Made by a program: the position numbers and the translations under genes
Source of the DNA: a virus
Taxonomy: Duplodnaviria > Heunggongvirae > Uroviricota > Caudoviricetes
IMG/VR virus record: IMGVR_UViG_3300031555_010707
DNA length: 64,000 nt
Reading direction: 5' to 3' (one strand)
Notes under the pieces: generated by a model
Database searches by the model: none
Told to the model about the DNA's origin: nothing
Seen by the model: only the letters and a program-made list of their open reading frames with translations
Part shown: piece after piece, positions 7,473 through 34,698 of the stretch
Position numbering within the stretch: position 1 is the first letter of the stretch
Layout of the letters: every line of letters starts with the position of its first letter

Positions 7473-8549
7473 TTACTCGTCGTGTTGGATCAAGAAGAGA
7501 GGGTCAACAGCCTTGAAACTCTTTCTGCCATCCTGAGAACGGAAAACAATACCCTCACGAAGAGTATCGTGTAGGCTACTCTTTCCGTGGGCATATTCAA
7601 GAACTTCATCAACCGTCTTAGGAAGCTGCACGGCTGTATCGATAATGGGCACAAATTCAAGGCCATGCAGTCCAACTACAGTCTTGGCATAAAGAGAATC
7701 CAATCTTCCCTTCGGATAGATCAGGTTAAAGACGTAAAGACCAAAGTCTGGAACTTTGTACTTATTGCCTTGGATCTTCGGGCCGATGCACTCTCCCTGA
7801 ATGGCAACCCATTCCCATTCGCCAATCATTCCTTTTAGAGCATCCTCGATATGGTATTTATCAGCTACTTGCCAATAAGAGGAATTATCTCTGACCGGAA
7901 GCTGACGATTGCGAGAGCAAACGATGAAATCAAACTTATCCTTGCAGAAAGGCCATTTTGACTTCTTTCTTACCAAGGCAAAAGTACCAGACTGGCCATC
8001 GATCTTCTCGGTCGCAATCCACTTTTCATCAGATTCCAGTATAAAAGGAATGTTTTGTATGCGTGTCTCATCTGTCTTGCTCAAAAACGACGGGAAGCCT
8101 CCCGCCGTCTTTTTAGGCAAAACCAGATTGCGGAACCATTTCATCCGCATGAGAAATCTCGGATACTTCCGAGCAGGCTTAGCTTCAGGAACAACAGGAT
8201 CAACATCCATTGTTCCCTCATACTGTTTGACCCCAATGAGCTCAGTGACATCTTGGTCGTTTTTGTATTCACCAGGAGGAAGGATGCTCATCGGGAAACA
8301 AATTCCCTGAGAGACGACGTTGCCCATCTTCATCGTCTTGATTCGGAAATTCTTGCTCCGCAGGAATTCGAATTCAGGTTTCTCAGGCAGAACAGAGTCA
8401 ATCTCTATGTATACGCACTGATCGCCGATTTCGTAATCGCCCTTGCGAACAATGACATGCCAGCCATCTACGGTGGCCAGAACGATGCGGTCTTTACCCT
8501 CGATGGGCTGAAGACCAGCAATCGTTTTAACGCTGGCAAGATTACGCAT
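7473..8549 (-). CDS. ATP-dependent RNA ligase, Rnl5/DraRnl-like, with an N-terminal OB domain
   Basis: Nucleotidyltransferase motif I TEKIDGQSGTF (KxDG). The N-terminal module is MRNLASVKTIAGLQPIEGKDRIV... Confidence 0.65.
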   Translation of the reverse strand: MRNLASVKTIAGLQPIEGKDRIVLATVDGWHVIVRKGDYEIGDQCVYIEIDSVLPEKPEFEFLRSKNFRIKTMKMGNVVSQGICFPMSILPPGEYKNDQDVTELIGVKQYEGTMDVDPVVPEAKPARKYPRFLMRMKWFRNLVLPKKTAGGFPSFLSKTDETRIQNIPFILESDEKWIATEKIDGQSGTFALVRKKSKWPFCKDKFDFIVCSRNRQLPVRDNSSYWQVADKYHIEDALKGMIGEWEWVAIQGECIGPKIQGNKYKVPDFGLYVFNLIYPKGRLDSLYAKTVVGLHGLEFVPIIDTAVQLPKTVDEVLEYAHGKSSLHDTLREGIVFRSQDGRKSFKAVDPLFLIQHDE

Positions 8550-15228: not shown

Positions 15229-15699
15229 TCATTCCTTTCTTTCGGTATTCATCAGCATATCCACAGCATATTGTATATGCTTGGTTTCCAAACCCCACCC
15301 ATAGAATGAAGTGTGAACTAAATGTGGAAGATGCACATTCATATCACTATCGTCATCGAGAATGACGTAGGATTCAACGGAAATATCCCTATGGTGATTA
15401 AACCATGCGGAAATATCATCGCCGCGTTCCTTGCCCGTATAGGGTGTATCGGAGTGAATGGACAGCCCGTATTCAGCAAGCTGCTGGACGAGGTGAGCCC
15501 TTGCTTTCGGGATTTTTCTCCATGATGAAGATAGAACAATCGTCGCGCCTGTCGCACTAACGATTTGCTTTAGGCAGGCAATCGCTCGTTTATCCAAGAT
15601 GTCTTCGTAGAAAACGCGGACGCCTTGCTCGCTAAACATCTTTTCGGCAAACGAATTACTGTTCAACACACCGTCAACGTCCAGAAAAATCACGCGCAT
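15229..15699 (-). CDS. HAD-superfamily phosphatase
   Basis: MRVIFLDVDGVLNS is HAD motif I. GGAGGG sits 6 nt upstream of the ATG at 15699. Confidence 0.5.
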   Translation of the reverse strand: MRVIFLDVDGVLNSNSFAEKMFSEQGVRVFYEDILDKRAIACLKQIVSATGATIVLSSSWRKIPKARAHLVQQLAEYGLSIHSDTPYTGKERGDDISAWFNHHRDISVESYVILDDDSDMNVHLPHLVHTSFYGWGLETKHIQYAVDMLMNTERKE

Positions 15700-15890
15700 G
15701 TCTGACCCTCCACACATTCCTGCGGCAATGTGAAAGTCGGTTTCCAGATAGCGACAATCGTTCTGGATTTCTGATCCACAAAACCGATGCCACCATCGTA
15801 GAGTGTCATATTCAAGTCATGCTTAGCACACGCAGCCTGAATATCTGCTACCAAAGCGGAGACTTTTTTCTGGATTTCAGTTGTTTCCAT
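15690..15890 (-). CDS. Hypothetical small protein
   Basis: ORF. Confidence 0.25.
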   Translation of the reverse strand: METTEIQKKVSALVADIQAACAKHDLNMTLYDGGIGFVDQKSRTIVAIWKPTFTLPQECVEGQTCA

Positions 15891-15903: not shown

Positions 15904-16674
15904 TCAATCGATGGTTTTCAGACCCGGATCGTAACTTGGCGGCATCGAGAGCTTGAAAAGGTTGGCTCGATGCAAACGGTCAATTCGGTTCTTTGTAATC
16001 TGGCTTTCGCATTTACCAGTACGGATATAGGTATCCAGCTCGGCATAGGTAAAACCAAGGTTATCCTCGTCCGTCTTTCCACAGAGTCCGTCACTGGGAA
16101 CCTTGTCTACCAGCTCAGGCGGCAAACCGCATTCGTAGCCAACCGCCTTTACCTCTTCAACAGTGAGCTTCGCCAGAGGGCAGAAGTCTCCGGCGCTATC
16201 ACCGTAGCGTGTAGAGTAACCTACCCAATCCTCCGACAGATTGCAAGTGTTGGCTACTCGGCCATTCAAGGACTGAGACACAGCATACAGCGTAGCCATT
16301 CGGATTCGAGGAGGCAGATTCACCATTGTCTGGTCACTCAACGTGATACCAGCGCCTCCAATAGCATTGAGTACGTCACTCACAGCCAAGGTGACAGGCA
16401 CCATAAAGTGCTTAATTCCCAGGTGTTCGCAGAGTTTGAAGCTATCATCGATGTCCAGCTGCGCCAGATTTGGCATCAGGACGCCAATGACCCGCTCTCC
16501 TCCGAGGGCTTCCTTGCACAAAGTAGCAACGATATTGCTATCCTTGCCTCCAGAAATGCCGATGACAGCATTGCAGTCTTTGCCATTGGATTCAAACCAC
16601 TCTCGAATCCACTGTACAATTTCTTCTTTTATTTTCTTGGCATCAAACTTGTTCATGTTTACCCCATACTTCAT
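15904..16674 (-). CDS. nadE: NH3-dependent NAD+ synthetase
   Basis: PP-loop VIGISGGKDS. Collinear with B. subtilis NadE: PRIRMATLY, TRYGDSAGDFCPLAKLT and LGFTYAELDTYIRTGK match. Confidence 0.7.
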   Translation of the reverse strand: MKYGVNMNKFDAKKIKEEIVQWIREWFESNGKDCNAVIGISGGKDSNIVATLCKEALGGERVIGVLMPNLAQLDIDDSFKLCEHLGIKHFMVPVTLAVSDVLNAIGGAGITLSDQTMVNLPPRIRMATLYAVSQSLNGRVANTCNLSEDWVGYSTRYGDSAGDFCPLAKLTVEEVKAVGYECGLPPELVDKVPSDGLCGKTDEDNLGFTYAELDTYIRTGKCESQITKNRIDRLHRANLFKLSMPPSYDPGLKTID

Positions 16675-17467
16675 CGATAATGTAGTCTCTTGCTTCAGAG
16701 AAAATCGGAATATTCAGATCAGGTGTCCACTTGGATCGTTGTGCGCCATTTACTTCATAGCTGCGTTTGACAATGCAAAGACCGGCCTTTTGATTTATGG
16801 GCAGACTGTGCCAATCAAACCCTTTCTCTTTCATCATCTGCAGCATCTGAGCGCAGTTCTTCTTGTGTAGTTCTTTATGCGAATACATCGATCTTGCACA
16901 AGACTCGACACTATTCCGCACGGCATCTTGCTGGCGCCAAATAAAGTAATTGACGACCTCATGCTCCGGCAACAGGAAAGCTCTGCTATCGAACATAGCC
17001 TGATCGATATTGCGGAAGTAGGTGTTATAGTCCTTCTTGAACTTTTCCTGCTTCTCTTCTGACATAAACTCAAGAGACAAAGGCAAATAGTGATGCTGCT
17101 GAACGTAAGACCGGTAGCTGCGATTGAATGCACGAGTTGCAATTGACGCCGTAACACTGGCAATCTTTTGCAAATTGTTGCCGAACCATGCCTGCGTGGT
17201 AAGCTCATCGTCGTTCCTGAGAACGAGCGAAATCTCGTCGGACTGTGTATAAGCGAGCTTACAGCCCTCCACATTACGGCAAAGTTCAATGGCAACTTCC
17301 TTCATGGGCTCAGAAACAGCGCTGTCAAATGGACGCTTGAACCCCCTGGTAAAAGTATGGAATGCCTTTCCGTCCACACGAACGATGACCGGCATTCTTC
17401 TCGGAAGATAGAATCTATAGGCGTTTTCGTATTCTTTCATACGGTCGCCCAAGGAATCACGAGACAT
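16643..17467 (-). CDS. Thg1-like protein (tRNA-His guanylyltransferase family, 3'-5' nucleotidyltransferase)
   Basis: RMKEYENAYRFYLPRRMPVIVRVDGKAFHTF...AYTQSDEISLVL is a Thg1 signature. AAGGAGG lies 5 nt upstream of the ATG at 17467. Confidence 0.65.
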   Translation of the reverse strand: MSRDSLGDRMKEYENAYRFYLPRRMPVIVRVDGKAFHTFTRGFKRPFDSAVSEPMKEVAIELCRNVEGCKLAYTQSDEISLVLRNDDELTTQAWFGNNLQKIASVTASIATRAFNRSYRSYVQQHHYLPLSLEFMSEEKQEKFKKDYNTYFRNIDQAMFDSRAFLLPEHEVVNYFIWRQQDAVRNSVESCARSMYSHKELHKKNCAQMLQMMKEKGFDWHSLPINQKAGLCIVKRSYEVNGAQRSKWTPDLNIPIFSEARDYIIDEVWGKHEQV

Positions 17468-17861
17468 GATGTCCTCCTTTTCCCGGCCCGCCCATTGGCA
17501 TTCCGGGGAATATTGTTTTTCCTTGATATTCCTTACATTTAGAACCATCAAAGTAATAAGCCCATGTACTGTCGTCCGAACCACGGAAAGTGATATATGA
17601 ACCGGCTTCAACGAATGGAGCAATTTGATTGAACATCGCTTCGATCTCATCGCTGTAAAATTTCTGGTACTCATAGCACATTGAAATGATATTGCCGTGC
17701 TCATCTATTTCTACAGTAAGCCCAAACTCCGTCATAACCTCTGGAAGATCATCTTCCTTTTTGTATTCCGGGTACTTACCATGAAGGGCTTCGAGTGCCT
17801 CTGGAAATTTAATTCGCGGGATGTAGAAATCTGACTGTTCAGAGTTCGCGTAATAACCCAT
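17457..17861 (-). CDS. Hypothetical protein
   Basis: ORF. Confidence 0.35.
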   Translation of the reverse strand: MGYYANSEQSDFYIPRIKFPEALEALHGKYPEYKKEDDLPEVMTEFGLTVEIDEHGNIISMCYEYQKFYSDEIEAMFNQIAPFVEAGSYITFRGSDDSTWAYYFDGSKCKEYQGKTIFPGMPMGGPGKGGHHVS

Positions 17862-19590: not shown

Positions 19591-21781
19591 TGACTGCCTC
19601 CTGATAATACTTGTTTCGGAGTTCGACAATGTTGGTAGAAGGATTACTCTCGGCATACTTTCTGACGAAAGCATAGAAATAATTCGTCAACGGAGTTTGC
19701 AAAGCGCCGGTGTTACGGAACTGTCCATAGTTGAATACGCTTTGGGCTACTCCGCGAAGAAGTTTCCATGTGGCGTAATAATCCGTCTTGATCTTGAGCA
19801 TGAATCCGACAGCATCTCTGATGACATATCCTTCAAAGGGAATGGCATCGGGACGGGCAAGAAGATTCTGAGAATTCTGATACAGGGAAAGGAATTCTTC
19901 CCAGTTATTGATGACACAGGCTCTCTTTTTCACTTCCAGTCCAAGCTCTTCTGCGGCACTGACGAGTTGAACATAGCTGCAAGCCGAGAATTCCAGTTGG
20001 TTTTCCACCATGTCCAGAAGATAGAGATGCTTCTCTCGGTATTCAATGATGTGTGGATCATTGACGGGATCAACCGCCTCGAACAGGAGCGTTACATCAT
20101 GTTTCTTCAGGTACTCTGTCAGCCTCTGCTTCTGCTCATCAGTGAACATGGAACGGAAAAGTTCTGCCATCGCACCGTCAACAGAAGACTTGGTGGTCAT
20201 GAACAAGGAGCCCGTAGACTGGTCATAAGAAACCAGCCCGAGGAAACCATTCTCTTTTTCGAAGACTTCAACAGGGAACACGAGTTTCTTCTGAAGCACA
20301 GACAGCTTGGTGTTCTGTCTTTCGTTGACTGCGAAGAATTTTTCATATCCACGAGCCACAACCTTCATGTTGGTGGTGTCGATATACAAACCGCGAGCAC
20401 GAACTGTAAGCGAATTCCACTTCTTATCCATAAAGGCTGCCCGAGTGAAGTTGAAGGAAGAAATATGACCGAAGGACTTTTCATGAATGAGGGGACTCTG
20501 CCGCATCCTCGCAACGAGATCGGAAATGATCTCTCTTTCAGTAGATGCAACGGGTTGCGCATCTTTGGGTGGCTGAACAACGGGCTGTTCGGCGGAGGGA
20601 TAATTAACCACCTTCCAGCCTTCTTCAGACAGGACGACGGTTCTCAGCTCTCCTCCACGTTCTACAGCGCCTTCGAGACAGAAACAATGTTCCGAAACAT
20701 GAGTCGGCAAACCGGAAACATTGCGATGACCGAACACCTGATAATACATGGGCGGAGCGGATTTTTCAAAGGACTCAACACATTCCTCCATCTGCTCGTA
20801 AAAGCCAACGCCGGAAATCATCTGGCAGGCAGGAACAAAGTCGAGATGGCCGAGAGAAGACCAGTCTGAAATACCTCCATGAGTGCAGAGTACAGTGCGA
20901 CCACGATATGTATAATAGGAACACTGTCGGATACGGCGGTAGAATTTTCTTATTTCTACCATGGAAATGCCGGCTGCATCAAGCTGGAATCCAGTCTTCG
21001 AATTGAACTCCCTTGAAGCAGATTGGCGACCGTTCGCCCACTCCCACAGATGAACCTCGTGATTTCCTTCAAGGAAACACACATTGGGGCGTTCTGAAAT
21101 ATCCATGAGGAACTGAAGAACCTTCGGAGAATCCGGGCCGCGATCAGCATAATCTCCGCAGAAAATATAGGCGGTCTTATCATCGATGCCATCCACAGGA
21201 TTTTCCCCGAACACCTTCTGGAGAGTGGAGTAGCATCCGTGAATATCACCGATGTGTACGACCTTATCATATTCGCTCAAATCGAAAGGAGTAGTAAATA
21301 TCTGCTCCCAATCATCGACGGTGATTCTCTTGATTCCGGCTGGAATATTCTGTGTCTGGAAACGTGAGTATACCTTTTCAATGTAGTCCTGTGGAACGAT
21401 TTTGAGCGGAGGCCGCTGGGCGTTACGGCGGAGGGTTTCCTCCAGAGGAATATCCGTCATGTCCAGGCAATAGATCCGATAGCGGTATTGATGCGCCAAT
21501 TCTTTGTAGCGCGTCATTTCGCTCGTCTTGGAATTGCAGGCATCGATAATCGTGAAATCACCGCGCTGCATCCTGCGTTCAAGCATGGCAAACAAGGTAT
21601 CCCAGACAATTCTATCGTTCTTCTGGGATATGACGGGCTTACCTTGTGGATCAAGTGCCGGGGAGGCAAAAAGGGAACGAATCTTATCAGACGAAAGTGC
21701 ATGGTCAGACAGGCCGTTCTTCTCAATCCAAGTGGATTTGCCGCAACCTGGAGCACCGCGCATCAAAATGAGAATTCGCAA
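19574..21781 (-). CDS. pnkp: Trifunctional RNA repair enzyme: polynucleotide 5'-kinase, metallophosphoesterase and ATP-dependent ligase-like (Clostridium thermocellum Pnkp-type architecture)
   Basis: N-terminal P-loop GAPGCGKST. Central GDIHGC, GDYADRG and GNHE calcineurin motifs. C-terminal EKENGFLG KxDG-like adenylyltransferase motif; 735 aa. Confidence 0.75.
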   Translation of the reverse strand: MRILILMRGAPGCGKSTWIEKNGLSDHALSSDKIRSLFASPALDPQGKPVISQKNDRIVWDTLFAMLERRMQRGDFTIIDACNSKTSEMTRYKELAHQYRYRIYCLDMTDIPLEETLRRNAQRPPLKIVPQDYIEKVYSRFQTQNIPAGIKRITVDDWEQIFTTPFDLSEYDKVVHIGDIHGCYSTLQKVFGENPVDGIDDKTAYIFCGDYADRGPDSPKVLQFLMDISERPNVCFLEGNHEVHLWEWANGRQSASREFNSKTGFQLDAAGISMVEIRKFYRRIRQCSYYTYRGRTVLCTHGGISDWSSLGHLDFVPACQMISGVGFYEQMEECVESFEKSAPPMYYQVFGHRNVSGLPTHVSEHCFCLEGAVERGGELRTVVLSEEGWKVVNYPSAEQPVVQPPKDAQPVASTEREIISDLVARMRQSPLIHEKSFGHISSFNFTRAAFMDKKWNSLTVRARGLYIDTTNMKVVARGYEKFFAVNERQNTKLSVLQKKLVFPVEVFEKENGFLGLVSYDQSTGSLFMTTKSSVDGAMAELFRSMFTDEQKQRLTEYLKKHDVTLLFEAVDPVNDPHIIEYREKHLYLLDMVENQLEFSACSYVQLVSAAEELGLEVKKRACVINNWEEFLSLYQNSQNLLARPDAIPFEGYVIRDAVGFMLKIKTDYYATWKLLRGVAQSVFNYGQFRNTGALQTPLTNYFYAFVRKYAESNPSTNIVELRNKYYQEAVNERSA

Positions 21782-23133
21782 GAGAACACCTCCTTGTTTT
21801 CATTCAAGTAATTGACAATATGGACACGTTCATTTTTCAAAGAGCCATCAATTACAGCATCAAGAACCTTGTTCAGAACAAAGCCGACTCTTTTCCCTTC
21901 CGCTATATTGAGCAACTCCATTACATCTTTTCCGCTGATTTCCAAATCTTTCAGACTAAAGCATTGGTTTTGCTCGACAATCTCATAGGCAATAGCTGCC
22001 AGAGATACGCAGCGTTCAATTCGAGACTGCTGAGTGCTCTCCTTATGAGCGAGAATATCAGCCATTCTGATTTCAACCAGTCTTGAAAATTGGAGTTCAC
22101 CGATTTTGTTCAACCATCGGCGCACTGTCTTCGGGGTAGGCTCAATAACGGCATCGTGGAACAACACAAGTTCGAGTACGTCATGCTTGGTTTTGTTGTC
22201 AAAACGCAATCTGTCAAGAACCTTTTCGGCAAGATCTCGACTGTATACTCCGTGACCATAGAAGTGCCCTCCGTTTTCATCCGTGGTATAGCAACATGGC
22301 TTGCCAATATCATGAAGGAATAACGAGAGCTTTATAACAATGTCATTTAATCCGCAGTTTTCTACGGCATGACAAATGTGATCGTATACGGTGTACTCGT
22401 GATACCTGTTATTTTGGTCAAATCCAATGCAGGGACTCATTTCTGGAATGATGACAGAGATAACATCGCTATACTCCAGTAAGATTTGAAGAACTCCTCG
22501 ACCACAGAGCATCTTGCATAGCTCGGTCTGAATTCTCTCTGCTGCAATGTTCAGGAGCTTTTCTTTATTCCTATGGATTGCCTGAGATGTTTTCTCTTCA
22601 ATGGCAAAACCATATGTAGAAGCAAAGCGCATTGCTCTCAGGATTCGAAGCGCATCTTCTCCGAATCTGTCATCTGGATTTCCAACGCATGAAATGATTC
22701 TTCTATTCAGGTCGTCCTGACCATGAAAAGGATCGATAATTCTTTCTCCGTCATAGGCCATTGCATTAACAGTGAAATCACGGCGTGCTAAATCCAGCTC
22801 TATGTTTTTCACGAATTCTACACTATCAGGATGTCGGCTATCAGAATAAAGTCCGTCAATTCTGAAAGTCGTAACCTCATACTGCTCAGAATCCCCGAGA
22901 TTAACCGTGATTGTTCCGTGCTGTAAGCCTGTATCAATCGTCTTGATATTGCGTTTTGCGAAGAAAGCCTTCATTTCAAGAGGAGTGGCTGATGTGCAAA
23001 TATCCCAGTCTTTCGGTTCAAGGTCAAGCAAGCTGTCTCGCACGCATCCACCAACGACATAGGCATCAAACCCGGCCTTGCGCAAATCCTGTATGATGAA
23101 ATTGGCGCCGTGCGGGATTTGGATATTACGCAT
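21763..23133 (-). CDS. cca: CCA-adding tRNA nucleotidyltransferase with a C-terminal HD domain
   Basis: GGCVRDSLLDLEPKDWDICTS is the class II head domain; HDIGK is the HD motif. Confidence 0.75.
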   Translation of the reverse strand: MRNIQIPHGANFIIQDLRKAGFDAYVVGGCVRDSLLDLEPKDWDICTSATPLEMKAFFAKRNIKTIDTGLQHGTITVNLGDSEQYEVTTFRIDGLYSDSRHPDSVEFVKNIELDLARRDFTVNAMAYDGERIIDPFHGQDDLNRRIISCVGNPDDRFGEDALRILRAMRFASTYGFAIEEKTSQAIHRNKEKLLNIAAERIQTELCKMLCGRGVLQILLEYSDVISVIIPEMSPCIGFDQNNRYHEYTVYDHICHAVENCGLNDIVIKLSLFLHDIGKPCCYTTDENGGHFYGHGVYSRDLAEKVLDRLRFDNKTKHDVLELVLFHDAVIEPTPKTVRRWLNKIGELQFSRLVEIRMADILAHKESTQQSRIERCVSLAAIAYEIVEQNQCFSLKDLEISGKDVMELLNIAEGKRVGFVLNKVLDAVIDGSLKNERVHIVNYLNENKEVFSCEFSF

Positions 23134-24148
23134 CGATAGCTCTCCTGTTCACTTCGATAACAAATTCCTCGACCTTCTTCATGTCCGGATGCTTTGGGAG
23201 GTTGGTATTTGCCTTCGCATATTCCAGACGCTTCTCGTATTCGCTCACCATCTCAAAGAATTCAGGCGCATATGAACCGTCTTCGCGCTGAAATTTACCG
23301 TTTCGGATACTGAGCAGAAAATCTCTGTCGTTGTATCGATAGGTGTTGATTTCGCCTTTCTCCAAGATGTCCAGACACAGAAGATAGAGACGAATCAGGT
23401 GCATGGCGTGCTTGTTGAGATGATCGTCGTCCTTCTTATGATTGCGATGGTGCAACTTCTCGTAATCTCGAAGTACACTGGACAGGGTGTTAAGCATGAT
23501 GCTGAACTCTCTGGCAGGATACTTTTCAAGGTGAATGTTGCAGAACACTTCCTTATCAAGATCGTCACGAGAACTCTCGTCGGTAAAGAGGCTGATACAA
23601 CCCTGATCGAAATCGGAATACTTGGAAGCGAATTCCCGAAGGGCTCGTTCCAGTGCCCCTCTGATGTGTTCCTCTTTCTTTGCCTGCGGCAACCTGTCTC
23701 TGGCGAGCGCGTTTTCCAAACGGCGAAGCTGCTGAGTAGCATATCCTCCGAACGAACTGACCGCTCTTTGCGAAAGGAACAGGCTTGCGTTGTCGATCAT
23801 CATGCGGCCTGCATCGGAAACATAAAAATAATGCTCCGGTTTGCAGCCGAGCATTTCAATCGTATTGGGATTGCAGTTCAGAAGCAAGCTGACCAGTTTG
23901 TTGAAGCCATAGATGGTAGTGTCGGTCTGCGTGTTTACGACCTGTTCAAAATTTGAGAGGCCGAGAAGATCACTCTTGCTGTTCATTGCACAGCCTCTTA
24001 CATCTACATCCGATGTTTCAATGTTGGTTCCATAGGCATGACTTCCGCCAAGCGTAAGGAACATAAGTCGGCCTGCGAGGTGAGGATTGGTTCGCAAGAA
24101 GTCATATTCCTCTCCGTTTACCATTTCTTTGATTTGCTCAAGAGTCAT
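23126..24148 (-). CDS. Pol-beta-superfamily nucleotidyltransferase, RlaP-like (RNA-ligase-associated NTase)
   Basis: LGGSHAYGTNIETSDVDVRG is a GS-YG-SDxDxRG signature. Confidence 0.5.
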   Translation of the reverse strand: MTLEQIKEMVNGEEYDFLRTNPHLAGRLMFLTLGGSHAYGTNIETSDVDVRGCAMNSKSDLLGLSNFEQVVNTQTDTTIYGFNKLVSLLLNCNPNTIEMLGCKPEHYFYVSDAGRMMIDNASLFLSQRAVSSFGGYATQQLRRLENALARDRLPQAKKEEHIRGALERALREFASKYSDFDQGCISLFTDESSRDDLDKEVFCNIHLEKYPAREFSIMLNTLSSVLRDYEKLHHRNHKKDDDHLNKHAMHLIRLYLLCLDILEKGEINTYRYNDRDFLLSIRNGKFQREDGSYAPEFFEMVSEYEKRLEYAKANTNLPKHPDMKKVEEFVIEVNRRAIDA

Positions 24149-28173: not shown

Positions 28174-28264
28174 TGGCGGAGAGAGTGGGATTCGAACCCA
28201 CGGACGGCGCGGAGCCGTCGGCGGTTTTCAAGACCGCTGCCTTAAGCCGCTCGGCCATCTCTCC
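28174..28264 (-). tRNA. tRNA-Ser(TGA), type II, CCA encoded
   Basis: Cloverleaf folded by hand; anticodon loop CTTGAAA. Confidence 0.75.
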
Positions 28265-28272
28265 ATTACGGG

Positions 28273-28479
28273 TCAGTTTTTTGTAAAAGGTATAACCACT
28301 TCTTTAAGAGCTTGAATTCTATCGAAACGGTCATTGCGGCCATCAACCCAGCGTTCTTTACCACAGCGTTTACAGCGATATTTCCGCATTGAGAATCGAA
28401 CATTGCCGTCAGTAGATTCAAACCAACTTACTTTAACGAACTTATGTCTGCAGAATAATGAGATAAGCCATTTTTTCAT
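28273..28479 (-). CDS. Small zinc-ribbon protein
   Basis: CKRCGK pair. Confidence 0.3.
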   Translation of the reverse strand: MKKWLISLFCRHKFVKVSWFESTDGNVRFSMRKYRCKRCGKERWVDGRNDRFDRIQALKEVVIPFTKN

Positions 28480-28490
28480 ACTGCGTCTCC

Positions 28491-28790
28491 TTAGAACTTT
28501 CCAAGTATAACGGCCTTATCGGATATGTATTCGCCGTTAATGGTATTGAAGTATTGACCGATCGGGCGAACAAGATAGACGATTGGATTTCCTCCGTACT
28601 TAATACAGGCTTTCTTGGCAAATTTCTGAGCAGTAGCAAGAGACGTTGTGAAGAAAACCTTATCTTCGTACTTCTTCCTCCAATGTTCACGCTTGCAATT
28701 CGTGATGATGGGAGGCAAGAGAATTTTGTGAATTTGGAGAGAATCCGTAGTTCCATGATAGAAAACTTTAGTATTCGCCGGAAAATTCAT
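28491..28790 (-). CDS. Small protein resembling the C-terminal NAD-binding lobe of Tpt1/KptA RNA 2'-phosphotransferase (an ART-fold)
   Basis: VFYHGTTDSLQIHKIL matches the KptA LYHGTASRFLDEIK. GGNPIVYLVRP matches HGSPVILTV. Confidence 0.3.
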   Translation of the reverse strand: MNFPANTKVFYHGTTDSLQIHKILLPPIITNCKREHWRKKYEDKVFFTTSLATAQKFAKKACIKYGGNPIVYLVRPIGQYFNTINGEYISDKAVILGKF

Positions 28791-29046
28791 GTTCAATGAC
28801 CTCGCATCCGTGGGCGGCGTCTTCGATGAGCCCAATCAAAAGAGCTTCTACGTCATCAAGAAGGTTTGCATAGGTACTCCCGTAAAGCCCAACCATATTG
28901 TCCGAATCTCTTTCTTCGTCCTCCGGACTGGGGATACGGACATTATGCTGCTCAAGAATTTCTTCGAACATATCGATAATTCTTGCCGCTTCGTCATGCG
29001 TATAGATGGTCTTTCTATCCGAATCAGATTTGACTATACCCGTCAT
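28768..29046 (-). CDS. Hypothetical acidic protein
   Basis: ORF. Confidence 0.3.
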   Translation of the reverse strand: MTGIVKSDSDRKTIYTHDEAARIIDMFEEILEQHNVRIPSPEDEERDSDNMVGLYGSTYANLLDDVEALLIGLIEDAAHGCEVIEHEFSGEY

Positions 29047-29273
29047 CGTACTCCTCCTTGATGATTTCTTGTCCTCTGCATCCTCTTTCGAGTCAAGCGG
29101 CTTGGAACGCTTCTTGCTGCATTACAAGCGGCAGACAGCCCAGTCCTACTATCTGCCGGATGTCCAGCTGTACTGGTTGGAGGGAACGCGATACTCCTGG
29201 CAAGCGCGAGCCTGTCTCCATCAAGCTCGTAAATGCGCTTTCATGCCCTGTCAATAACCAAGTGTATCGCAGC

Positions 29274-29352
29274 AGTGGTCTTCCTGGCGGGACTCGAACC
29301 CGCGACTCCTTGATTAAAAGTCAAGTGCTCTACCAACTGAGCTACAGGAAGG
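29274..29352 (-). tRNA. tRNA-Lys(TTT)
   Basis: Anticodon loop CTTTTAA; CCA encoded. Confidence 0.75.
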
Positions 29353-29355
29353 TAA

Positions 29356-29430
29356 TGGCGGCTCGTCAGGGATTCGAACCCCGAACCTATCGGTTAACAG
29401 CCGAGTGCTCTACCTTTGAGCTAACGAGCC
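29356..29430 (-). tRNA. tRNA-Asn(GTT)
   Basis: Anticodon loop CTGTTAA; CCA encoded. Confidence 0.75.
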
Positions 29431-29468
29431 ATGATGCCACCGCCATTGTCGTAGAGGTGGCAAACAGA

Positions 29469-29660
29469 TTAGAATAACCGCTTTCCGCAAGTCGGGCAGC
29501 GGTAGATGGTGAAATTTCCGATCTTATAATCGGTTCCATTGGTTTTGCAGTTGATCGGAAGATATTCGTTATCCCATTTCAGGCGATGGATTTCTCTTCC
29601 GTTCTTATCGACTTCGGCAACATATGGAACATAGCCTTTCGGATTGCATACACTGCACAT
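29469..29660 (-). CDS. Small zinc-ribbon protein
   Basis: CxxC...CxxC. Confidence 0.3.
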   Translation of the reverse strand: MCSVCNPKGYVPYVAEVDKNGREIHRLKWDNEYLPINCKTNGTDYKIGNFTIYRCPTCGKRLF

Positions 29661-29663
29661 AAA

Positions 29664-29951
29664 TCACGCACCTTCTTCCAGAAGATCGTCTTCAGTCATT
29701 TCATCCATGTCGCTTCTCATCGCCTGAAGTTTTCTCTGATCCGAAATCTTGTTGCTGGACATAGAATTCGGGCTACCTCCCCATGACTTGCGGGGATTGC
29801 ACATACAGCAGGAGCAGTGAATCTTGTTCTTGGAATATTGATGAAGATTGTCATACCAGTCTCCACCCATAATGTTCCTGACGATGGAACGCTTGCGTTT
29901 TGCATGTTTCCAATCCATCTTTCTGGAACGACCTCTGTTATTCGGCTTCAT
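29664..29951 (-). CDS. Hypothetical basic Cys-containing small protein
   Basis: AAGGAG 7 nt upstream of ATG 29951. Confidence 0.3.
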   Translation of the reverse strand: MKPNNRGRSRKMDWKHAKRKRSIVRNIMGGDWYDNLHQYSKNKIHCSCCMCNPRKSWGGSPNSMSSNKISDQRKLQAMRSDMDEMTEDDLLEEGA

Positions 29952-29973
29952 GCTATCACTCCTTGCTAAAGAA

Positions 29974-30066
29974 TGGCGGAAGGTGTGAGATTCGAACTCA
30001 CGGTGCCCGAATTTCAGGCACGCCTGATTAGCAATCAGGTGCATTAAGCCACTCTGCCAACCTTCC
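29974..30066 (-). tRNA. tRNA-Ser(GCT), type II
   Basis: Anticodon loop TTGCTAA; long variable arm. Confidence 0.75.
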
Positions 30067-30069
30067 AGA

Positions 30070-30144
30070 TGGAGCTCCCATTCGGATTTGAACCGAAAAC
30101 CAATCGCTTACGATGCGATTGCTCTGCCGTTGAGCTATAGGAGC
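30070..30144 (-). tRNA. tRNA-Thr(CGT)
   Basis: Anticodon loop ATCGTAA. Confidence 0.7.
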
Positions 30145-30411
30145 ACTTGTGTCTACAATTTCAATCGAACTTCCGATTTCTTCTCCAGCGCCTGCACCAA
30201 CAGAAATCGCAATCCAGATACCCGACACGATGCCCGTCGATTTTGCACACCGAAGAACCATGCGCCACATGTTCTCGATTGCCACAACTTCCGCAGCAGC
30301 GCCCTTCTCTTACGTCGTCTGAAGCGTATACTTTCAGGCCGTTGTTGCTATTGCGAGTATCATAAGAAAGACATATGAGCAACGAGAACACCTCCTAAAA
30401 TGATTGATGAA

Positions 30412-30488
30412 ATGGAGCCGGATATGGGACTCGAACCCATGACCCTGCGCTTACAAAACGCACGCTCTGGCCATCTGAGCTAATCCGG
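30412..30488 (-). tRNA. tRNA-Thr(TGT)
   Basis: Anticodon loop TTTGTAA. Confidence 0.7.
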
Positions 30489-30577
30489 CATGTGTGGTGG
30501 CCTCTGCTGGTAACGATCCAGCCTCCGTAGATTTTCAGTCTACTGCTTTCACCATGTAAGCTAAAAGGCCAAGTAAA

Positions 30578-30654
30578 TGGTGCCGAGGGTGGGACTTGAA
30601 CCCACAAATCGCAGATTTTGAGGCTGCTTCCTATGCCATTTCGGATACCCCGGC
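30578..30654 (-). tRNA. tRNA of uncertain identity: type I structure, canonical register gives anticodon CAA, discriminator A73
   Basis: Acceptor, D and T arms are good. The anticodon stem GCAGC/TCTGC has a loop-proximal C-U mismatch; loop CTCAAAA. Confidence 0.55.
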
Positions 30655-30817
30655 TTGTGTGTTTCCCGCTTAGATTGAACATTGTATCCTTTGGGTCACG
30701 GCTACTCAGATCAAGCCGAACATTTGCAACTGTCCAGTTCCAATGCTTTTCAGCGGACATTTTCATTCTCTGTGAGGAATCCACAACGCTCACATCAGCA
30801 GGGAGCGACCCTGCATT

Positions 30818-30900
30818 TGGTATGGATGAAGGGATTCGAACCCTTACGCTTACGCACTGGGACTTAAAACCAGCGTGCCTGCCAATTACACCACATCCAC
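30818..30900 (-). tRNA. tRNA-Leu(TAA), type II
   Basis: Leu-like D arm and long variable arm. Loop TTTAAGT. G1-U72 first pair. Confidence 0.6.
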
Positions 30901-31176
30901 TTAGTCTATTTTGTTGCGCCATTCATCATAGCTGGGAGGAGACATACCCTCATACTCATCGCTGTTATGGTCAATTGCCCATTGTACGAGGAACAAAAGA
31001 TACCGCTCCCAACGCACGTCATAATCGTCCAGCAATGCACAATTGGTCAACCTCATGCCACTTTGTTCGAGCCATCCGAATTCATGCTCAAGCATTTCTA
31101 TCGGAGGAAGCTCGGCTGTTGGCTCCTCTTGATAATTGATAATTGCAACGAAGGTTCTTTCATCCACCGCTATCAA
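30901..31176 (-). CDS. Hypothetical small protein
   Basis: ORF. Confidence 0.3.
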   Translation of the reverse strand: MIAVDERTFVAIINYQEEPTAELPPIEMLEHEFGWLEQSGMRLTNCALLDDYDVRWERYLLFLVQWAIDHNSDEYEGMSPPSYDEWRNKID

Positions 31177-31243
31177 CCTTTCCTATGGAAAGGCACCCCG
31201 CCACAATGAACGGGGTGCCAAGAGAATATGTGTTTATGTACAA

Positions 31244-32737
31244 TTAGTGCTTGTCGGCAATAGCTCCACCAAGCATACCGGACAGCAGAGCCATCAGATC
31301 CAGACCGGTTGCATCCTTGAAGCCGTCTTGCACCTGCTTCATACCGGTCGTAACCGTGCCGGTCAGATTGGAGGTGCCGCCCTCGTAGATGGTCATGTTG
31401 TCGATGCTTTCCATGGGCTTCGCAATTGCCGCTGCAATGTCCGGCATGGTCTTGACGTATTCCAACGCGACGTCCAGAACCATCTGCTGCTTCGCGGCAT
31501 CGTCGTATTCCTTCATGGCTTCCGCCTTCTTCAGAATACCAACAGCTTCAGCCTCCGCTTTAGCCTGGATGGCTTCGGCTTCAGCGCGACCCTTTGCGGC
31601 AACGCCTGCCGCCTCGTTCTCCATAGCAATACGCTCTGCTTCGGAACGCGCCTTTTCGGCGGCGGCTCTTTGTTCAGCTTCGAACAGCTCAGCGTCTGCC
31701 TTCTTCTGTCGCTGGAAAAGCTCAGCCTCTGATGCCTTCTGAAGTTCGTACAGACGAGCGTCGGCTCTCTGCTGAGCAGCATACTTGTCTGCTTCAGCCT
31801 TCTTCTTGATCTCGGCATCCAGAGCGCGTTCACGGATGGCGACTTCACGTTCCTTCAGCTCAATCTCCTTTTCCAGACGAGCCAAGTTAGCCTCGGCAGT
31901 CTTAGTTTCGATAGAAGCACGCTGTTCCTGCTCCTGAATGGAATAAGCAGCATCGGCTTCTGCTCGCTTGGCATCCTCGATCTTTTTCAGTTCGGCTCTC
32001 TGGATTGCCAATTCGTTCTTGCGCTTAGCAATCTCTTGCTCAGACTTGACCTGAGCTTCGTTGGCAGCCATAGCGGCCTGCGCTCTGGCAATGGCAATTT
32101 CCTTTTCGGCCTGAGCCTTGGAAACAGCCGCATCCTTGGAAATCTGAACCGTGTTTTCCAGACCCAGATTATCAATGACGCCGTTGCGATCCTTGAAGTT
32201 CTGGATGTTGAAGGTGGTCAGCTCCAAGCCCATATCACGCAGATTGGGCGTTACGTTCTCAATGATGCGTTCAGCGAAAGTCTTCTTGTCGCCCTGAATG
32301 AGTTCTTTCAGAGTGGTCTGAGAAATAATTTCGCGGATGTTGCCTTCGAGAACGGGAGTGATGATTTCCTTGATTTGCTCGGGCTTATAGCCAAGGAACT
32401 TGGATGCTGCAATCTTCAGCAGTTCGGGTTCTTTGGAAATCGCCACGTTGGCCACCGCATCAACCATAATATTGATTGCGTCCTTGGTGGGAATCTCATC
32501 GCGGGAAGTAAAGTCGGACTGAATGTTTTCGAGCGACATGTAGTCAACTCGCTGGATAATGGGGATGACAAGAGCGCCCTGACCAATGATGGTTCTCGAA
32601 CCACGCGGGCCGGTGATGACCATTGCAATGTTCGGGGGAGCCTTCTTGTACATAACCTTGCCGATGAAGACAACCAAGAGGACTGCGGCGATGAAACAAC
32701 CAACAAAAACAGCGGCAGACATGATAGATTCGAGCAT
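31244..32737 (-). CDS. SPFH/band-7 flotillin-like membrane protein
   Basis: N-terminal TM, an SPFH core (NIAMVITGPRGSR...), and a long EA-rich coiled coil. Confidence 0.6.
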   Translation of the reverse strand: MLESIMSAAVFVGCFIAAVLLVVFIGKVMYKKAPPNIAMVITGPRGSRTIIGQGALVIPIIQRVDYMSLENIQSDFTSRDEIPTKDAINIMVDAVANVAISKEPELLKIAASKFLGYKPEQIKEIITPVLEGNIREIISQTTLKELIQGDKKTFAERIIENVTPNLRDMGLELTTFNIQNFKDRNGVIDNLGLENTVQISKDAAVSKAQAEKEIAIARAQAAMAANEAQVKSEQEIAKRKNELAIQRAELKKIEDAKRAEADAAYSIQEQEQRASIETKTAEANLARLEKEIELKEREVAIRERALDAEIKKKAEADKYAAQQRADARLYELQKASEAELFQRQKKADAELFEAEQRAAAEKARSEAERIAMENEAAGVAAKGRAEAEAIQAKAEAEAVGILKKAEAMKEYDDAAKQQMVLDVALEYVKTMPDIAAAIAKPMESIDNMTIYEGGTSNLTGTVTTGMKQVQDGFKDATGLDLMALLSGMLGGAIADKH

Positions 32738-32940
32738 TCTGATTCTCCTTTGGTTCTATTTAAGTTCCCGCTGATACCAGCTCCGAGGATCACCCATCGC
32801 CCTGATAAGACTAATGCGAAAACCTTGAATCGGAGATTTGATATAGCTTTAACCCTTGACCCTTAACGCTTGAGCTTTATTGCGTATAAACTTTAATGCC
32901 TAAGCCTTACACTTTGAGCTTTATGCTTTGAGCTTTGAGA

Positions 32941-32967
32941 CAAAAAACAAGCGCTCCTGGCTTGTTT
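32941..32967 (-). terminator. Rho-independent terminator downstream of 33111..33758
   Basis: On the minus strand, stem ACAAGC / GCTTGT followed by TTTTTT. Confidence 0.45.
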
Positions 32968-33110
32968 CTCTATGCTTTGCATAGCATCTTCATATTATAT
33001 CGCAACCCAAATGCGTTTCCCTGTTTACATTTATTTGGCATTCGTCCAAACAGGGGAAAGTGTCGAATGAGCCTATCGTTTAGGGTTTTCAGTAACAGCG
33101 GAATCTTATT

Positions 33111-33758
33111 TTACTTGGTATCGTAGCTGACAGTGATGGTAGTCAGCGCATTGCTTACGCTCAGCGCAGCATCAATTTCAGCATCGAAAGCATCGATCTG
33201 CTCACTGAGCTGTTCGACCTTGGCTTTGATGTCAAGGGGATCGACCATATCCAGAGAGTTCATTTCGATGTATGCTTCACGGGTCTTAATGGCTTCGTCA
33301 CTCTTTGCCTTTTCACTGTTGGCAAACAGGCCGGAAACATAGGCGTCTGCCTTAGCCTGAAGCTCATCTCCGTTGGTGCGCTTGAAGTCCAGCGTTGCGG
33401 CAGCGAACTGCACTGTCATCTGCTTGACAAGCAGACGCAGGTTTTCCATGCCGGTCTTCTTCATCTCAATGGCTTCTGCAACCGTATAGGACTTGCCGCC
33501 AATGGTCACTTTGGTCTGGGCATTGGAGATGGACAGCGCATTACGGATCGCCGCTCTGCGATTGATACGAGCAATGATGCTTTCATAATCGCTCTTCATG
33601 CCATCCTTGTAGTCACCGACAGGCTTGCCGGCAATCTTATCATTAGAATGCTTGTTCGTGGTAATAAAAGTCGTGCCACGAATCTGATTCTGGATTCGAT
33701 CATCCAGAATCTTGAGGGTGCTGAGAGCCTGATGGACAGTCATGGTTTCCGTAGTCAT
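33111..33758 (-). CDS. Hypothetical protein
   Basis: ORF. Confidence 0.35.
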   Translation of the reverse strand: MTTETMTVHQALSTLKILDDRIQNQIRGTTFITTNKHSNDKIAGKPVGDYKDGMKSDYESIIARINRRAAIRNALSISNAQTKVTIGGKSYTVAEAIEMKKTGMENLRLLVKQMTVQFAAATLDFKRTNGDELQAKADAYVSGLFANSEKAKSDEAIKTREAYIEMNSLDMVDPLDIKAKVEQLSEQIDAFDAEIDAALSVSNALTTITVSYDTK

Positions 33759-33786
33759 GTAAATACCCCTTCCTTTTCTTCTGAGT

Positions 33787-33861
33787 TGGCTGTGGCGGTT
33801 GGGTTCGAACCAACGAATGCGGGAGTCAAAGTCCCGTGCCTTACCGCTTGGCTACGCCACA
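33787..33861 (-). tRNA. tRNA-Gln(TTG)
   Basis: U1-A72; loop CTTTGAC. Confidence 0.75.
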
Positions 33862-33864
33862 ATG

Positions 33865-33939
33865 TGGTGGAGGATAAGGGGCTCGAACCCTCAACCTTCC
33901 GCTTGCAAAGCGGATGCTCTACCTTTGAGCTAATCCCCC
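33865..33939 (-). tRNA. tRNA-Ala(TGC)
   Basis: G3-U70 present; loop TTTGCAA. Confidence 0.75.
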
Positions 33940-34220
33940 AGGTTGCACAGCGACCAATCTTCATCTCCAATGTCATGCTGAATTAAGGTGGACATGGAAC
34001 AAGCGTCCTTGCGTGAGCTCCCACAGGCCAAGTGCCATATCTCTCAATGTTCTATTAGCCCTTAATCCCTCTGCGTAATTCGTCTTATGAGTGCATTCCA
34101 TCAGTTAGAAAAACCGATCCTGCGCATGGCGGCTTCTATTCAGTTTTGAAAGGACGTATAAAGCCGCAACGGTAGTCCGTTTTCGCAGCTACGGATGTCT
34201 AATTTGTGCTGCGTCAGCGT

Positions 34221-34294
34221 TGCGCCCGAAGGGAATCGAACCCTTGACCACGCAGTTTCCCCTGCGTGACTCTACCAACTGAGTTACGAGGCGC
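34221..34294 (-). pseudogene. Aberrant tRNA-like gene: good T arm, extra 5' nucleotide, a 6-bp anticodon stem with a 6-nt loop GGGAAA, no encoded CCA
   Basis: T arm AAGGGTTCGATTCCCTT; anticodon arm ACGCAG GGGAAA CTGCGT. Confidence 0.4.
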
Positions 34295-34481
34295 ATAGAA
34301 ACCTCTGATACTTTTTCATCGCTTGTTTTCACAACCCTGAATCAATTAACAGGAAACGGTTTAATGTTATCAGAGGCGAGACGACCTAAGCCTTTTTGCC
34401 GTTAGAAAGCATTATCTTGTCGCCTGGAGGGGCGGATTTTCTCATGCTCCGCCATACAAGGAACCCTGAATCTAACTGGGT

Positions 34482-34693: not shown

Positions 34694-34698
34694 AGAAG

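Follow-up and report, generated by a model that had tools for sequence, protein, structure and literature searches.

An intact Thg1-like 3'-5' RNA polymerase gene in a phage RNA-repair block and its predicted role at tRNA 5' ends

Why would a bacteriophage encode a Thg1-like protein (TLP), a polymerase that adds nucleotides in the 3'-5' direction? The question is raised by a 64,000-nucleotide stretch of caudoviricete DNA (IMG/VR record IMGVR_UViG_3300031555_010707), referred to here as the window, from a phage of the SPbeta-like type that looks temperate (YonO-type RNA polymerase, integrase). An earlier note, made from the letters of the window, had read one of its open reading frames as a Thg1-like nucleotidyltransferase serving tRNA 5'-end repair or G-1 addition. 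We find that the gene is a real, intact gene of the Thg1-like 3'-5' ("reverse") RNA polymerase family, with activity predicted. Its product is probably a catalytically competent TLP of the bacterial type, a palm-domain 3'-5' RNA polymerase that would repair tRNA 5' ends and that is encoded beside other RNA-repair genes.

Both motifs on which the note had relied, VIVRVDGKAFHTF (residues 27-39) and AYTQSDEISLVL (residues 72-83), are present in the translation of the minus-strand frame 16643-17467 (Table 1). The mechanical ORF extends upstream to 17704. The ATG at 17467 is the better start, because a strong Shine-Dalgarno sequence, AAGGAGG, lies five nucleotides before it and identical 274-residue gene calls are found on public contigs. 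This Shine-Dalgarno sequence sits within the 3' end of the upstream ORF 17457-17861. At the opposite end of the gene, the stop codon of the TLP is overlapped by the start of NadE by 14-32 nt.

Table 1. Positions of the TLP gene, its active-site codons and structural elements, and the neighbouring genes in the window
Feature	Coordinates	Strand	Evidence
Second RNA ligase, DRB0094-type nucleotidyltransferase with N-terminal OB domain	7473..8549	-	PF21189 6.7e-28, PF09414 1.6e-18
HAD_SAK_2 phosphatase-like domain ("Swiss Army Knife" RNA repair proteins)	15229..15717	-	PF18143 9.5e-26
NadE (NAD synthetase)	15904..16674	-	PF02540 6.7e-48; gene calls on related contigs
TLP coding sequence, 274 aa plus stop	16643..17467	-	Pfam, phrog, PDB, AF2
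C-terminal beta-hairpin, residues 230-250	16718..16780	-	AF2 strands 230-239, 242-250
Variable insertion relative to BtTLP, residues 121-155	17003..17107	-	modelled extra helix 137-151 (AF2)
D77 and E78 codons, SDE motif (BtTLP D75/E76; human D76/E77)	17234..17239	-	alignment to 4kgk
D32 codon, first metal-binding carboxylate (BtTLP D30; human D29)	17372..17374	-	HMMER alignment to 4kgk
Shine-Dalgarno sequence of TLP	17473..17479	-	read from sequence
Macrodomain protein, DarG/TARG1-like, 164 aa	18510..19004	-	phrog_335 2.2e-45; PDB 5m31/5m3i/2afc
Kinase-metallophosphoesterase-Rnl1 ligase fusion (Pnkp), 735 aa	19574..21781	-	PF13671 6.5e-18, PF00149 2.5e-16, PF09511 2.1e-39
CCA-adding tRNA nucleotidyltransferase with HD domain	21763..23133	-	PF01743 3.2e-37; NF009814 2.8e-89, above cut-off
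RlaP, Pol-beta-fold nucleotidyltransferase, RNA-repair-associated	23126..24148	-	PF10127 5.9e-18; phrog_388 1.1e-54
tRNA array, 16 canonical tRNAs and one aberrant tRNA-like gene	28174..35759	-	ARAGORN; Rfam RF00005, 17 hits

To which branch of the family does the protein belong? Its score against the Pfam Thg1 profile PF04446 is 108.5 bits (cut-off 29.2; E 2.9e-31), with positions 2-130 of the 130 in the profile aligned, and it matches phrog_4717, "tRNA-His guanylyltransferase", with an E-value of 2.6e-91. The strongest structural template is BtTLP of Bacillus thuringiensis (PDB 4kgk; E 1.3e-73, ~45-50% identity), to which the TLP aligns in two parts, residues 4-120 and 156-265; weaker alignments were obtained with archaeal MaTLP (1.8e-10) and with Candida, human and yeast Thg1 (3.8e-10 to 9e-5). 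An AF2 model (pLDDT 88.6, pTM 0.86) retrieved 4kgm/4kgk, again BtTLP, as the top Foldseek match (E 3e-26, target-normalised TM 0.86), followed by archaeal MaTLP and then eukaryotic Thg1, in agreement with the sequence ranking. Thg1/TLP structures account for all of the best 32 PDB matches (E 3e-26 to 2e-10), and the next match has an E-value of 0.016. The Pfam Thg1C profile (PF14413) and NCBIfam gave no match to the TLP; we judge these misses to be a matter of profile sensitivity because the C-terminal half aligns to BtTLP with an E-value of 1.3e-29. The eukaryote-specific anticodon-recognition motif HINNLYN (PMC6471195) is missing from the TLP, where the aligned segment reads VRNSVES; R184 and N185, within this region, are invariant among TLP relatives. 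Assignment to the bacterial type follows from the BtTLP-like match and fold, the presence of the key BtTLP residues and the absence of HINNLYN.

Those key residues are conserved in the family. In an alignment of 43 homologues, E14, R30, D32, H37, T40, S76, D77, E78, K101, R162 and R178 are invariant (43/43), and R18 is kept in 41. Their BtTLP equivalents, with roles described in PMC3701042, are E12 (E14), R16 (R18), R28 (R30), D30 (D32), H35 (H37), T38 (T40), S74 (S76), D75 (D77), E76 (E78), K99 (K101), R131 (R162) and R147 (R178). Loss of the metal-binding Asp/Glu residues, which the earlier note had named as the finding that would speak against a Thg1 enzyme, was not seen: D32, D77 and E78 are all intact. 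Together with PF04446, phrog_4717 and 4kgk, the intact carboxylates uphold the Thg1-family identity that the note had proposed. Two positions differ from BtTLP. K43, which positions ATP, is conservatively replaced by R45 in the phage protein (24 of the 43 relatives have R here and 19 have K), and M158 is S189, a substitution common in the family; the nucleotide preference for activation could therefore differ from that of BtTLP.

Two structural elements lie outside this core. The TLP has a 35-residue segment, 121-155, where BtTLP has ~6 residues. It was rejected as a special feature, the segment being 18-41 residues long in the 43 relatives. The C-terminal hairpin aligns to BtTLP, and its residues are poorly conserved across the family. 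In MaTLP, a beta-hairpin reads the tRNA elbow and measures stem length, and binding is independent of the anticodon (PMC4820378); the phage hairpin may, by homology only, have the same elbow-reading role.

What surrounds the gene? The kinase-phosphatase-Rnl1 ligase, macrodomain, CCA, RlaP and HAD_SAK_2 genes are co-directional with the TLP gene and lie within 7 kb. The 735-residue enzyme also matches TIGR04075, the bacterial Pnkp N-terminal model (7.3e-23), and the second RNA ligase matches TIGR02306 (7.4e-43). The macrodomain protein scores 9.2e-18 against NF048014 DarG, below the cut-off, and just 0.0016 against Pfam Macro. The note had listed a Pnkp, two RNA ligases and a CCA enzyme, and had taken the PP-loop neighbour to be a NadE; each is found at the position given in Table 1. 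The same repair block recurs on contigs whose TLP is identical or 98% identical. More widely, a homologue of at least one repair gene of the block lies within 10 kb of the TLP at 29 of 80 IMG/VR loci, a raw count with no background control, and at two cellular loci (Paenibacillus and Seinonella) an AAA_33 P-loop kinase gene directly follows the TLP gene.

Some further observations concern the region at large. Between 13000 and 28500, promoter-like sites occur at the level of shuffled sequence (22 versus 19.6) and terminator-like sites above it (22 versus 13.6, sd 3.5). Megablast of window positions 10000-24000 against GenBank phages returned no DNA-level relative. The exact protein of a DnaG-like ORF at 1682-2683 was not on record when looked up; its called start probably differs.

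If the TLP acts on tRNA, which tRNAs does this phage supply? The earlier note had counted 15, and both ARAGORN and Rfam find 17 genes, 16 canonical and one aberrant. Every one of the 16 canonical tRNAs has an acceptor stem paired 7/7 and an encoded CCA. A mitochondrial-type 5'-editing role, in which mismatches within the first three acceptor pairs need the TLP, was rejected because none of the 16 carries a mismatched acceptor pair. This result is one for the tRNAs of the window.

Does the TLP then mature tRNA-His, as its database name implies, by supplying G-1 to a tRNA-His, of phage or host, that has no extra 5' guanosine? Relatives have such abilities: in vitro, TLPs can extend tRNA-His by a templated N-1, and a yeast thg1 deletion is weakly complemented by BtTLP (PMC3061083), MaTLP possesses a second binding mode that depends on the His anticodon (PMC4820378), and DdiTLP2 performs tRNA-His maturation in Dictyostelium mitochondria (PMC6471195). 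However, none of the 17 tRNA genes that ARAGORN and Rfam identified in the window is a tRNA-His, and no such gene was present in the 10 kb past either window end, in five related arrays (16-18 tRNAs each), or among 64 tRNAs within 10 kb of the TLP at 80 viral loci. The phage tRNA-His without an encoded G-1, for which the note had advised looking, did not turn up in the window, its 10-kb flanks or the five related arrays. Moreover, VRNSVES stands in place of HINNLYN, G-1 is genomically encoded in most Bacteria, and the kcat/KM of BtTLP for -1 addition is 5-160-fold below that for repair (PMC3061083). We regard tRNA-His maturation as very unlikely. Of the two functions that the note had offered, 5'-end repair is the one favoured by homology, and G-1 addition is disfavoured by membership of the TLP clade, the lack of HINNLYN and the absence of a tRNA-His gene from the window, its 10-kb flanks and the related arrays.

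Could the substrate be some other RNA? The aberrant tRNA-like gene at 34219-34295 is conserved; its 5' acceptor strand is bulged and it encodes no CCA. The TLP might act on its transcript or on other small RNAs, or might only activate 5' ends as App- or Gpp-RNA for the neighbouring ligases or as a cap-like mark. Precedents exist: DdiTLP4 accepts substrates other than tRNA for polymerisation (PMC6471195), Anantharaman et al. considered ligation through a 5'-App made by Thg1 (PMC2904730), and Gpp- and App-tRNA intermediates accumulate with BtTLP (PMC3061083). Translational coupling of the TLP to NadE, inside an NAD-metabolism cluster, fits as well. Nevertheless, nothing specific ties the TLP to the tRNA-like RNA, whose irregularity lies at acceptor positions 5/6, away from the 5' terminus. 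Invariance extends beyond the activation site to the residues of the nucleotidyl-transfer site, an argument for retention of the complete polymerase reaction. On balance, action on other RNAs or activation alone seems unlikely.

Might the gene instead be a passenger, acquired from a Firmicute host and playing no role in infection? TLPs are sporadic in phages: by tblastn, homologues occur in 162 of 50,697 GenBank phage records (0.3%), spread over ~29 host genera. The nearest named cellular homologues are those of Firmicutes such as Tissierella and Paenibacillus (~47-52% identity), and matches in GTDB genomes reach only ~45-51% (Paenibacillus, Seinonella, Vulcanibacillus and a probably mis-binned "Prevotella" contig). 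The gene directly upstream is not the same among close relatives, indicating local gene flux. Against a passenger stand the 32 synonymous versus 6 non-synonymous codon differences from a 98%-identical relative, a mark of strong purifying selection, as well as the invariance of all catalytic residues, the strong Shine-Dalgarno sequence, the presence of the exact protein in 36 blocks of a public assembly collection, and homologues in at least 582 viral (IMG/VR) contigs besides the 162 phage genomes. We consider a passenger gene highly improbable. The same counts do not support rarity in phages, which the earlier note had asserted for Thg1-like proteins, as a reason for interest. PHROGs holds a dedicated family for them (phrog_4717), most GenBank homologues (31-50% identity) already bear the annotation "tRNA-His guanylyltransferase", and single cases were pointed out in phage 201phi2-1 in 2010 (PMC2904730) and as gp143 of Bacillus phage Bc431v3 in 2013 (PMC3601020). 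Genes of this kind are on record from hundreds of large phages, and the TLP is an ordinary member of a known family. A search of the accessible literature found no biochemical characterisation (activity, substrate or phenotype) of any phage TLP.

Most likely, then, the phage TLP would restore lost tRNA 5' nucleotides, templated by the 3' acceptor strand. The reaction steps are carried over from BtTLP and MaTLP onto the family, fold, key-residue conservation, purifying selection and gene placement observed here; it is for BtTLP and MaTLP alone that a kinetic preference for 5'-truncated tRNA and Watson-Crick templating are known (PMC3061083). The TLP would bind a tRNA whose 5' acceptor strand is short by one or a few nucleotides, recognising the acceptor stem and elbow and leaving the anticodon unread. 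A 5'-OH end would be converted to a 5'-monophosphate by the kinase domain of the neighbouring 735-residue enzyme, and the TLP would activate the monophosphate with ATP or GTP to App- or Gpp-RNA. An incoming NTP would pair with the 3' acceptor strand by Watson-Crick rules and its 3'-OH would attack the activated end, nucleotidyl transfer proceeding by two-metal catalysis on D32/D77; the cycle would be repeated until the stem is full-length. The TLP may in this way complement the kinase-phosphatase-ligase, which would mend broken loops, the CCA/HD enzyme, which would serve 3' ends, and the phage tRNAs themselves. We may reasonably infer a full kit for 5'-end, 3'-end and anticodon repair, as was proposed in 2010 for Thg1-PNK-Macro-ligase neighbourhoods. 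Combined, these enzymes would maintain a working supply of tRNA while infection proceeds, possibly in the face of host nucleases that target tRNA.

Is the TLP a counter-defence component? If so, its repeated presence in large, tRNA-rich phages beside kinase, ligase and CCA enzymes would signify that, in some hosts, a nuclease or 5'-3' exonucleolytic attack, not yet described, strikes the 5' acceptor strand of tRNA, and the phage would re-polymerise the lost nucleotides in the 3'-5' direction. No host defence known to us strips nucleotides from tRNA 5' ends, and we hold this extension to be speculative and on the whole improbable. If true, this would be the first bacterial-type TLP with a known physiological role, and it would indicate tRNA-directed immunity of a new class. 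As an annotation, the gene adds little to a phage family that is already catalogued. It has modest value as a clean test case: a compact block brings together the TLP, every other class of tRNA end-repair enzyme and a tRNA array, and the lineage is found on many public contigs. The in vitro activity of bacterial-type TLPs has been well defined since 2010-2011, while their physiological substrates are still undefined (PMC3061083). A deletable phage gene under purifying selection would offer a tractable route both to the TLP substrate and to the agent that truncates tRNA 5' ends.

How does this system compare with those already described? Eukaryotic Thg1 (yeast, human, Candida; PDB 3OTB, 3WBZ, 5XOX) has the fold and the three carboxylates in common with the phage TLP, but identity is just ~20% and HINNLYN is peculiar to the former; the phage protein is not expected to add G-1 opposite A73 without a template. 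Dictyostelium DdiTLP3 rebuilds 5' acceptor strands of many tRNA species in a template-dependent manner (PMC6471195), whereas 5'-editing of the mitochondrial kind needs genomic 5' mismatches and the canonical phage stems are fully paired. BtTLP (PDB 4KGK/4KGM; Rao et al. 2011, Hyde et al. 2013) is closest, sharing the carboxylate triad and the activation- and transfer-site residues; the gene here is phage-borne, and the kinase to which it is linked is fused to a phosphatase and a ligase, as opposed to a small stand-alone one.

Other carriers of phrog_4717 are likewise large, tRNA-rich phages, for example Bc431v3 (gp143), mycobacteriophage Omegavirus (gp114), the Lak megaphages and Caulobacter and Xanthomonas jumbo phages. 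Mycobacteriophage Pound encodes a polynucleotide kinase three genes from the TLP; the TLP genes of Bacillus phage Bc431v3 and Vibrio phage P018-4 are surrounded by hypothetical genes and have no repair neighbours. By comparison, the TLP described here lies within an unusually complete block of repair and NAD genes. The nearest parallel is with the conserved Thg1-PNK-Macro-RNA ligase neighbourhoods of Anantharaman, Iyer and Aravind (2010), for which RNA repair was proposed, including by phages against host defences (PMC2904730). As in those neighbourhoods, a TLP, a P-loop kinase, a macrodomain and an RNA ligase are encoded on one strand within ~5 kb. Here, in contrast, one 735-residue protein combines kinase and ligase with a metallophosphoesterase, and the block further contains genes for a CCA enzyme, RlaP, HAD_SAK_2 and NAD salvage.

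The open reading frame that ends at 16643 on the minus strand extends, read mechanically, back to 17704. The ATG at 17467, with the Shine-Dalgarno sequence AAGGAGG 5 nt upstream, yields a 274-residue Thg1-like protein (TLP), a product called identically on many public contigs. The earlier note had placed a Thg1-like gene at 16643-17467, which we confirm; both strings that it quoted are present, and residues 27-39 and 72-83 read VIVRVDGKAFHTF and AYTQSDEISLVL, respectively. TLP matches the entire Pfam Thg1 profile (PF04446, E 2.9e-31) and the phage family phrog_4717, "tRNA-His guanylyltransferase" (E 2.6e-91). Its best match by far among solved structures is the Bacillus thuringiensis enzyme, BtTLP (4kgk, E 1.3e-73), with MaTLP from archaea (1.8e-10) and the Thg1 enzymes of eukaryotes (3.8e-10 to 9e-5) matching much more weakly. 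A confident AlphaFold2 model built from 43 homologues (pLDDT 88.6, pTM 0.86) was submitted to Foldseek, which ranked BtTLP (TM 0.86 on target) ahead of MaTLP and eukaryotic Thg1; outside Thg1/TLP structures, no match was better than E 0.016.

Metal-binding residues D32, D77 and E78, aligned with BtTLP D30, D75 and E76, are invariant in 43/43 homologues; loss of these carboxylates, which the earlier note had named as the result that would refute its reading, was sought and not seen. E14, R30, H37, T40, S76, K101, R162 and R178 are likewise invariant and R18 is kept in 41/43, and in BtTLP the counterparts of these conserved residues bind the nucleotide used for activation and the incoming one (PMC3701042). 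BtTLP K43 and M158 are replaced by R45 (homologues divided R 24, K 19) and S189, substitutions that are, judged by alignment, ordinary family variation. A 35-residue insertion (121-155) was discarded as a special feature, since the segment spans 18 to 41 residues among relatives. The eukaryote-specific HINNLYN motif, which reads the His anticodon in eukaryotic Thg1 (PMC6471195), is VRNSVES at the aligned place. Because the key residues are kept, HINNLYN is replaced and codon changes against a 98%-identical relative are 32 synonymous versus 6 non-synonymous, TLP is an intact, selected, bacterial-type Thg1-like protein.

Is such a gene unusual in phages? Supposed rarity, which had been offered as a reason for interest, does not hold: tblastn found homologues in 162 GenBank phage records, mostly annotated already, and at least 582 IMG/VR contigs and, with scoring limited to 8,000 candidates, at least 7,967 homologues in a large protein collection were recovered. 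Carriers include Bacillus Herelleviridae, mycobacteriophage Omegavirus, Lak megaphages and jumbo phages of Caulobacter, Xanthomonas, Erwinia, Vibrio and Aeromonas, among others. A mere passenger gene is hard to reconcile with this recurrence or with the selection signal. A 2013 paper drew attention to the phage homologue Bc431v3 gp143 (PMC3601020), and Anantharaman, Iyer and Aravind in 2010 noted a phage Thg1, described Thg1-PNK-Macro-RNA ligase neighbourhoods and put forward RNA repair as an answer to host defences (PMC2904730). No biochemical characterisation of a phage TLP came up in our literature search. GenBank phage homologues are at most about 50% identical to TLP, and no DNA-level relative was found among GenBank phages. 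The annotation is correct; at the level of sequence TLP adds a new member to a family already known, and the type of neighbourhood in which it lies is known as well.

Most genes in the window lie on the minus strand, and the table lists those from the NAD genes to the 134-aa ORF in the order of transcription toward TLP.

Features of the window, with TLP and its neighbours
Feature	Position	Strand	Remark
960-aa protein	55945-58827	+	
380-aa reverse-transcriptase-like protein	38488-39630	-	phrog_2825/phrog_1423; RVT_1 in relatives' equal-length gene
tRNA array, 17 genes	28174-35759	-	ARAGORN and Rfam agree
GIY-YIG endonuclease	34763-35560	-	inside array, between tRNA-Pro and tRNA-Gly
Aberrant tRNA-like gene	34219-34295	-	Rfam tRNA 34.9 bits; ARAGORN 'tRNA-???'
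497-aa SPFH/Band-7 flotillin-like protein	31244-32737	-	PF01145 1e-21, PF15975 4e-12; mid array
Nicotinamidase-like isochorismatase, PRPP-synthetase-like protein, NAMPT/NAPRT	24606-27567	-	upstream of TLP
RlaP	23126-24148	-	upstream
CCA-adding enzyme with HD domain	21763-23133	-	upstream
735-aa P-loop polynucleotide kinase, metallophosphoesterase, Rnl1-type ligase fusion	19574-21781	-	upstream
Stand-alone DarG/TARG1-like macrodomain	18510-19004	-	upstream
GP88-family protein	17874-18491	-	upstream
134-aa ORF, phrog_38862	17457-17861	-	directly upstream
TLP	16643-17467	-	
NadE	15904-16674	-	downstream, overlaps TLP stop codon
HAD_SAK_2 "Swiss Army Knife RNA repair" domain protein	15229-15717	-	downstream, after NadE
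PemK/MazF-type endoribonuclease toxin homologue	11144-11581	-	PF02452, E 8e-23; farther downstream
Second RNA ligase, DRB0094-type	7473-8549	-	farther downstream
CinA, CinA/PncC-like	6904-7452	-	farther downstream

The macrodomain is closest to TARG1 and to the macrodomain of the antitoxin DarG (NF048014 9e-18; PDB 5m31/5m3i; phrog_335 2e-45) and could undo ADP-ribosylation of the DarT type or process derivatives of ADP-ribose that arise in RNA repair. The gene directly upstream of TLP varies between genomes 97-98% identical, being a 68-aa ORF in the related contig L001 (9772-9978), and the DNA alignment of the two breaks exactly there. NAD+ salvage and synthesis genes (NAMPT/NAPRT-, PRPP-synthetase-, isochorismatase/nicotinamidase- and CinA/PncC-like, and NadE) are intermixed with the RNA-repair genes; the set is similar to the NAD-reconstitution pathways by which phages counter defences that deplete NAD, and no NaMN/NMN adenylyltransferase was identified. 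No antitoxin was identified for the MazF/PemK homologue, whose neighbour at 10093-11130 is a 345-aa protein bearing a core-binding domain of MrpR type; MazF homologues lie within 10 kb of TLP in 8/80 viral loci.

The window carries many PHROG matches, and its 960-aa protein is assigned as a YonO-type RNA polymerase by pairing, solely on length and gene order, with the 960-aa product of the related contig L095, which carries PF05183 (RdRP) like the single-subunit SPbeta YonO. Around its gene lie YonV_C, YonG, YonD and YonB domains, a holin, an endolysin and an integrase, and because of these features the element is taken as an SPbeta-like, probably temperate phage. Occurrence of the exact TLP protein on contigs of 0.2-1 Mb suggests that the element exists as a prophage. 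Shortly upstream of the tRNA array lies the reverse-transcriptase-like gene, with the gene for a cREC_REC domain protein a few genes away.

The GIY-YIG gene is present in the window and three related contigs (L098, L099, L103) and missing from L100-L102, where tRNA-Pro and tRNA-Gly are separated by just 3 nt; because of this patchy presence, a mobile homing endonuclease is suggested. A small ORF at about 28491-28790 (minus strand) sits between tRNA-Ser(tga) and tRNA-Lys, and its counterpart on related contigs has a weak Pfam match to Arr-ms (rifampin ADP-ribosyltransferase-like). As for the flotillin-like gene, Fusobacterium phage Fnu1 likewise encodes a prohibitin-family protein, at a distance of three genes from its TLP. 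The aberrant tRNA-like gene has an extra U bulged in its 5' acceptor strand, no encoded CCA, a 7-bp anticodon stem and a 6-nt loop. It is kept at the same position in 5/5 related arrays, with one pair-preserving double substitution, C:G to A:T, at the base of the long stem and, in one relative, G3:U70 in place of G3:C70.

G-1 addition to tRNA-His, one of the two roles first proposed, is disfavoured: besides the missing anticodon motif, no tRNA-His gene was found in the window or 10 kb past either end, in five related arrays (16-18 tRNAs each) or among 64 tRNAs that lie close to TLPs on viral contigs. Mitochondrial-style 5' editing is rejected, as 16/16 canonical tRNAs encode their CCA and are perfectly paired at all seven acceptor positions. 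Less probably than tRNA 5'-end repair, TLP may act on non-tRNA substrates or solely activate 5' ends.

Being linked to a polynucleotide kinase fits tRNA 5'-end repair, since TLPs use a 5'-phosphate as substrate; in two cellular loci, Paenibacillus and Seinonella, a small AAA_33 kinase lies immediately 3' of the TLP gene. Homologues of the window's ligases, kinase-ligase, CCA enzyme, RlaP or HAD_SAK_2 occur within 10 kb in 29/80 IMG/VR TLP loci, a count made without background control. What value TLP retains lies in asking which agent shortens tRNAs at their 5' ends in bacteria. By analogy with BtTLP and MaTLP, the phage enzyme would rebuild 5'-truncated tRNAs in a templated manner. Both characterised enzymes perform Watson-Crick-templated addition to tRNAs without the first one or two 5' nucleotides, and for BtTLP this repair is 5-160-fold better than -1 addition to full-length tRNA (PMC3061083). 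MaTLP binds tRNA at the acceptor stem and the elbow rather than at the anticodon, and it terminates by gauging the length of the stem with a flexible beta-hairpin (PMC4820378), of which a putative counterpart is modelled at TLP residues 230-250.
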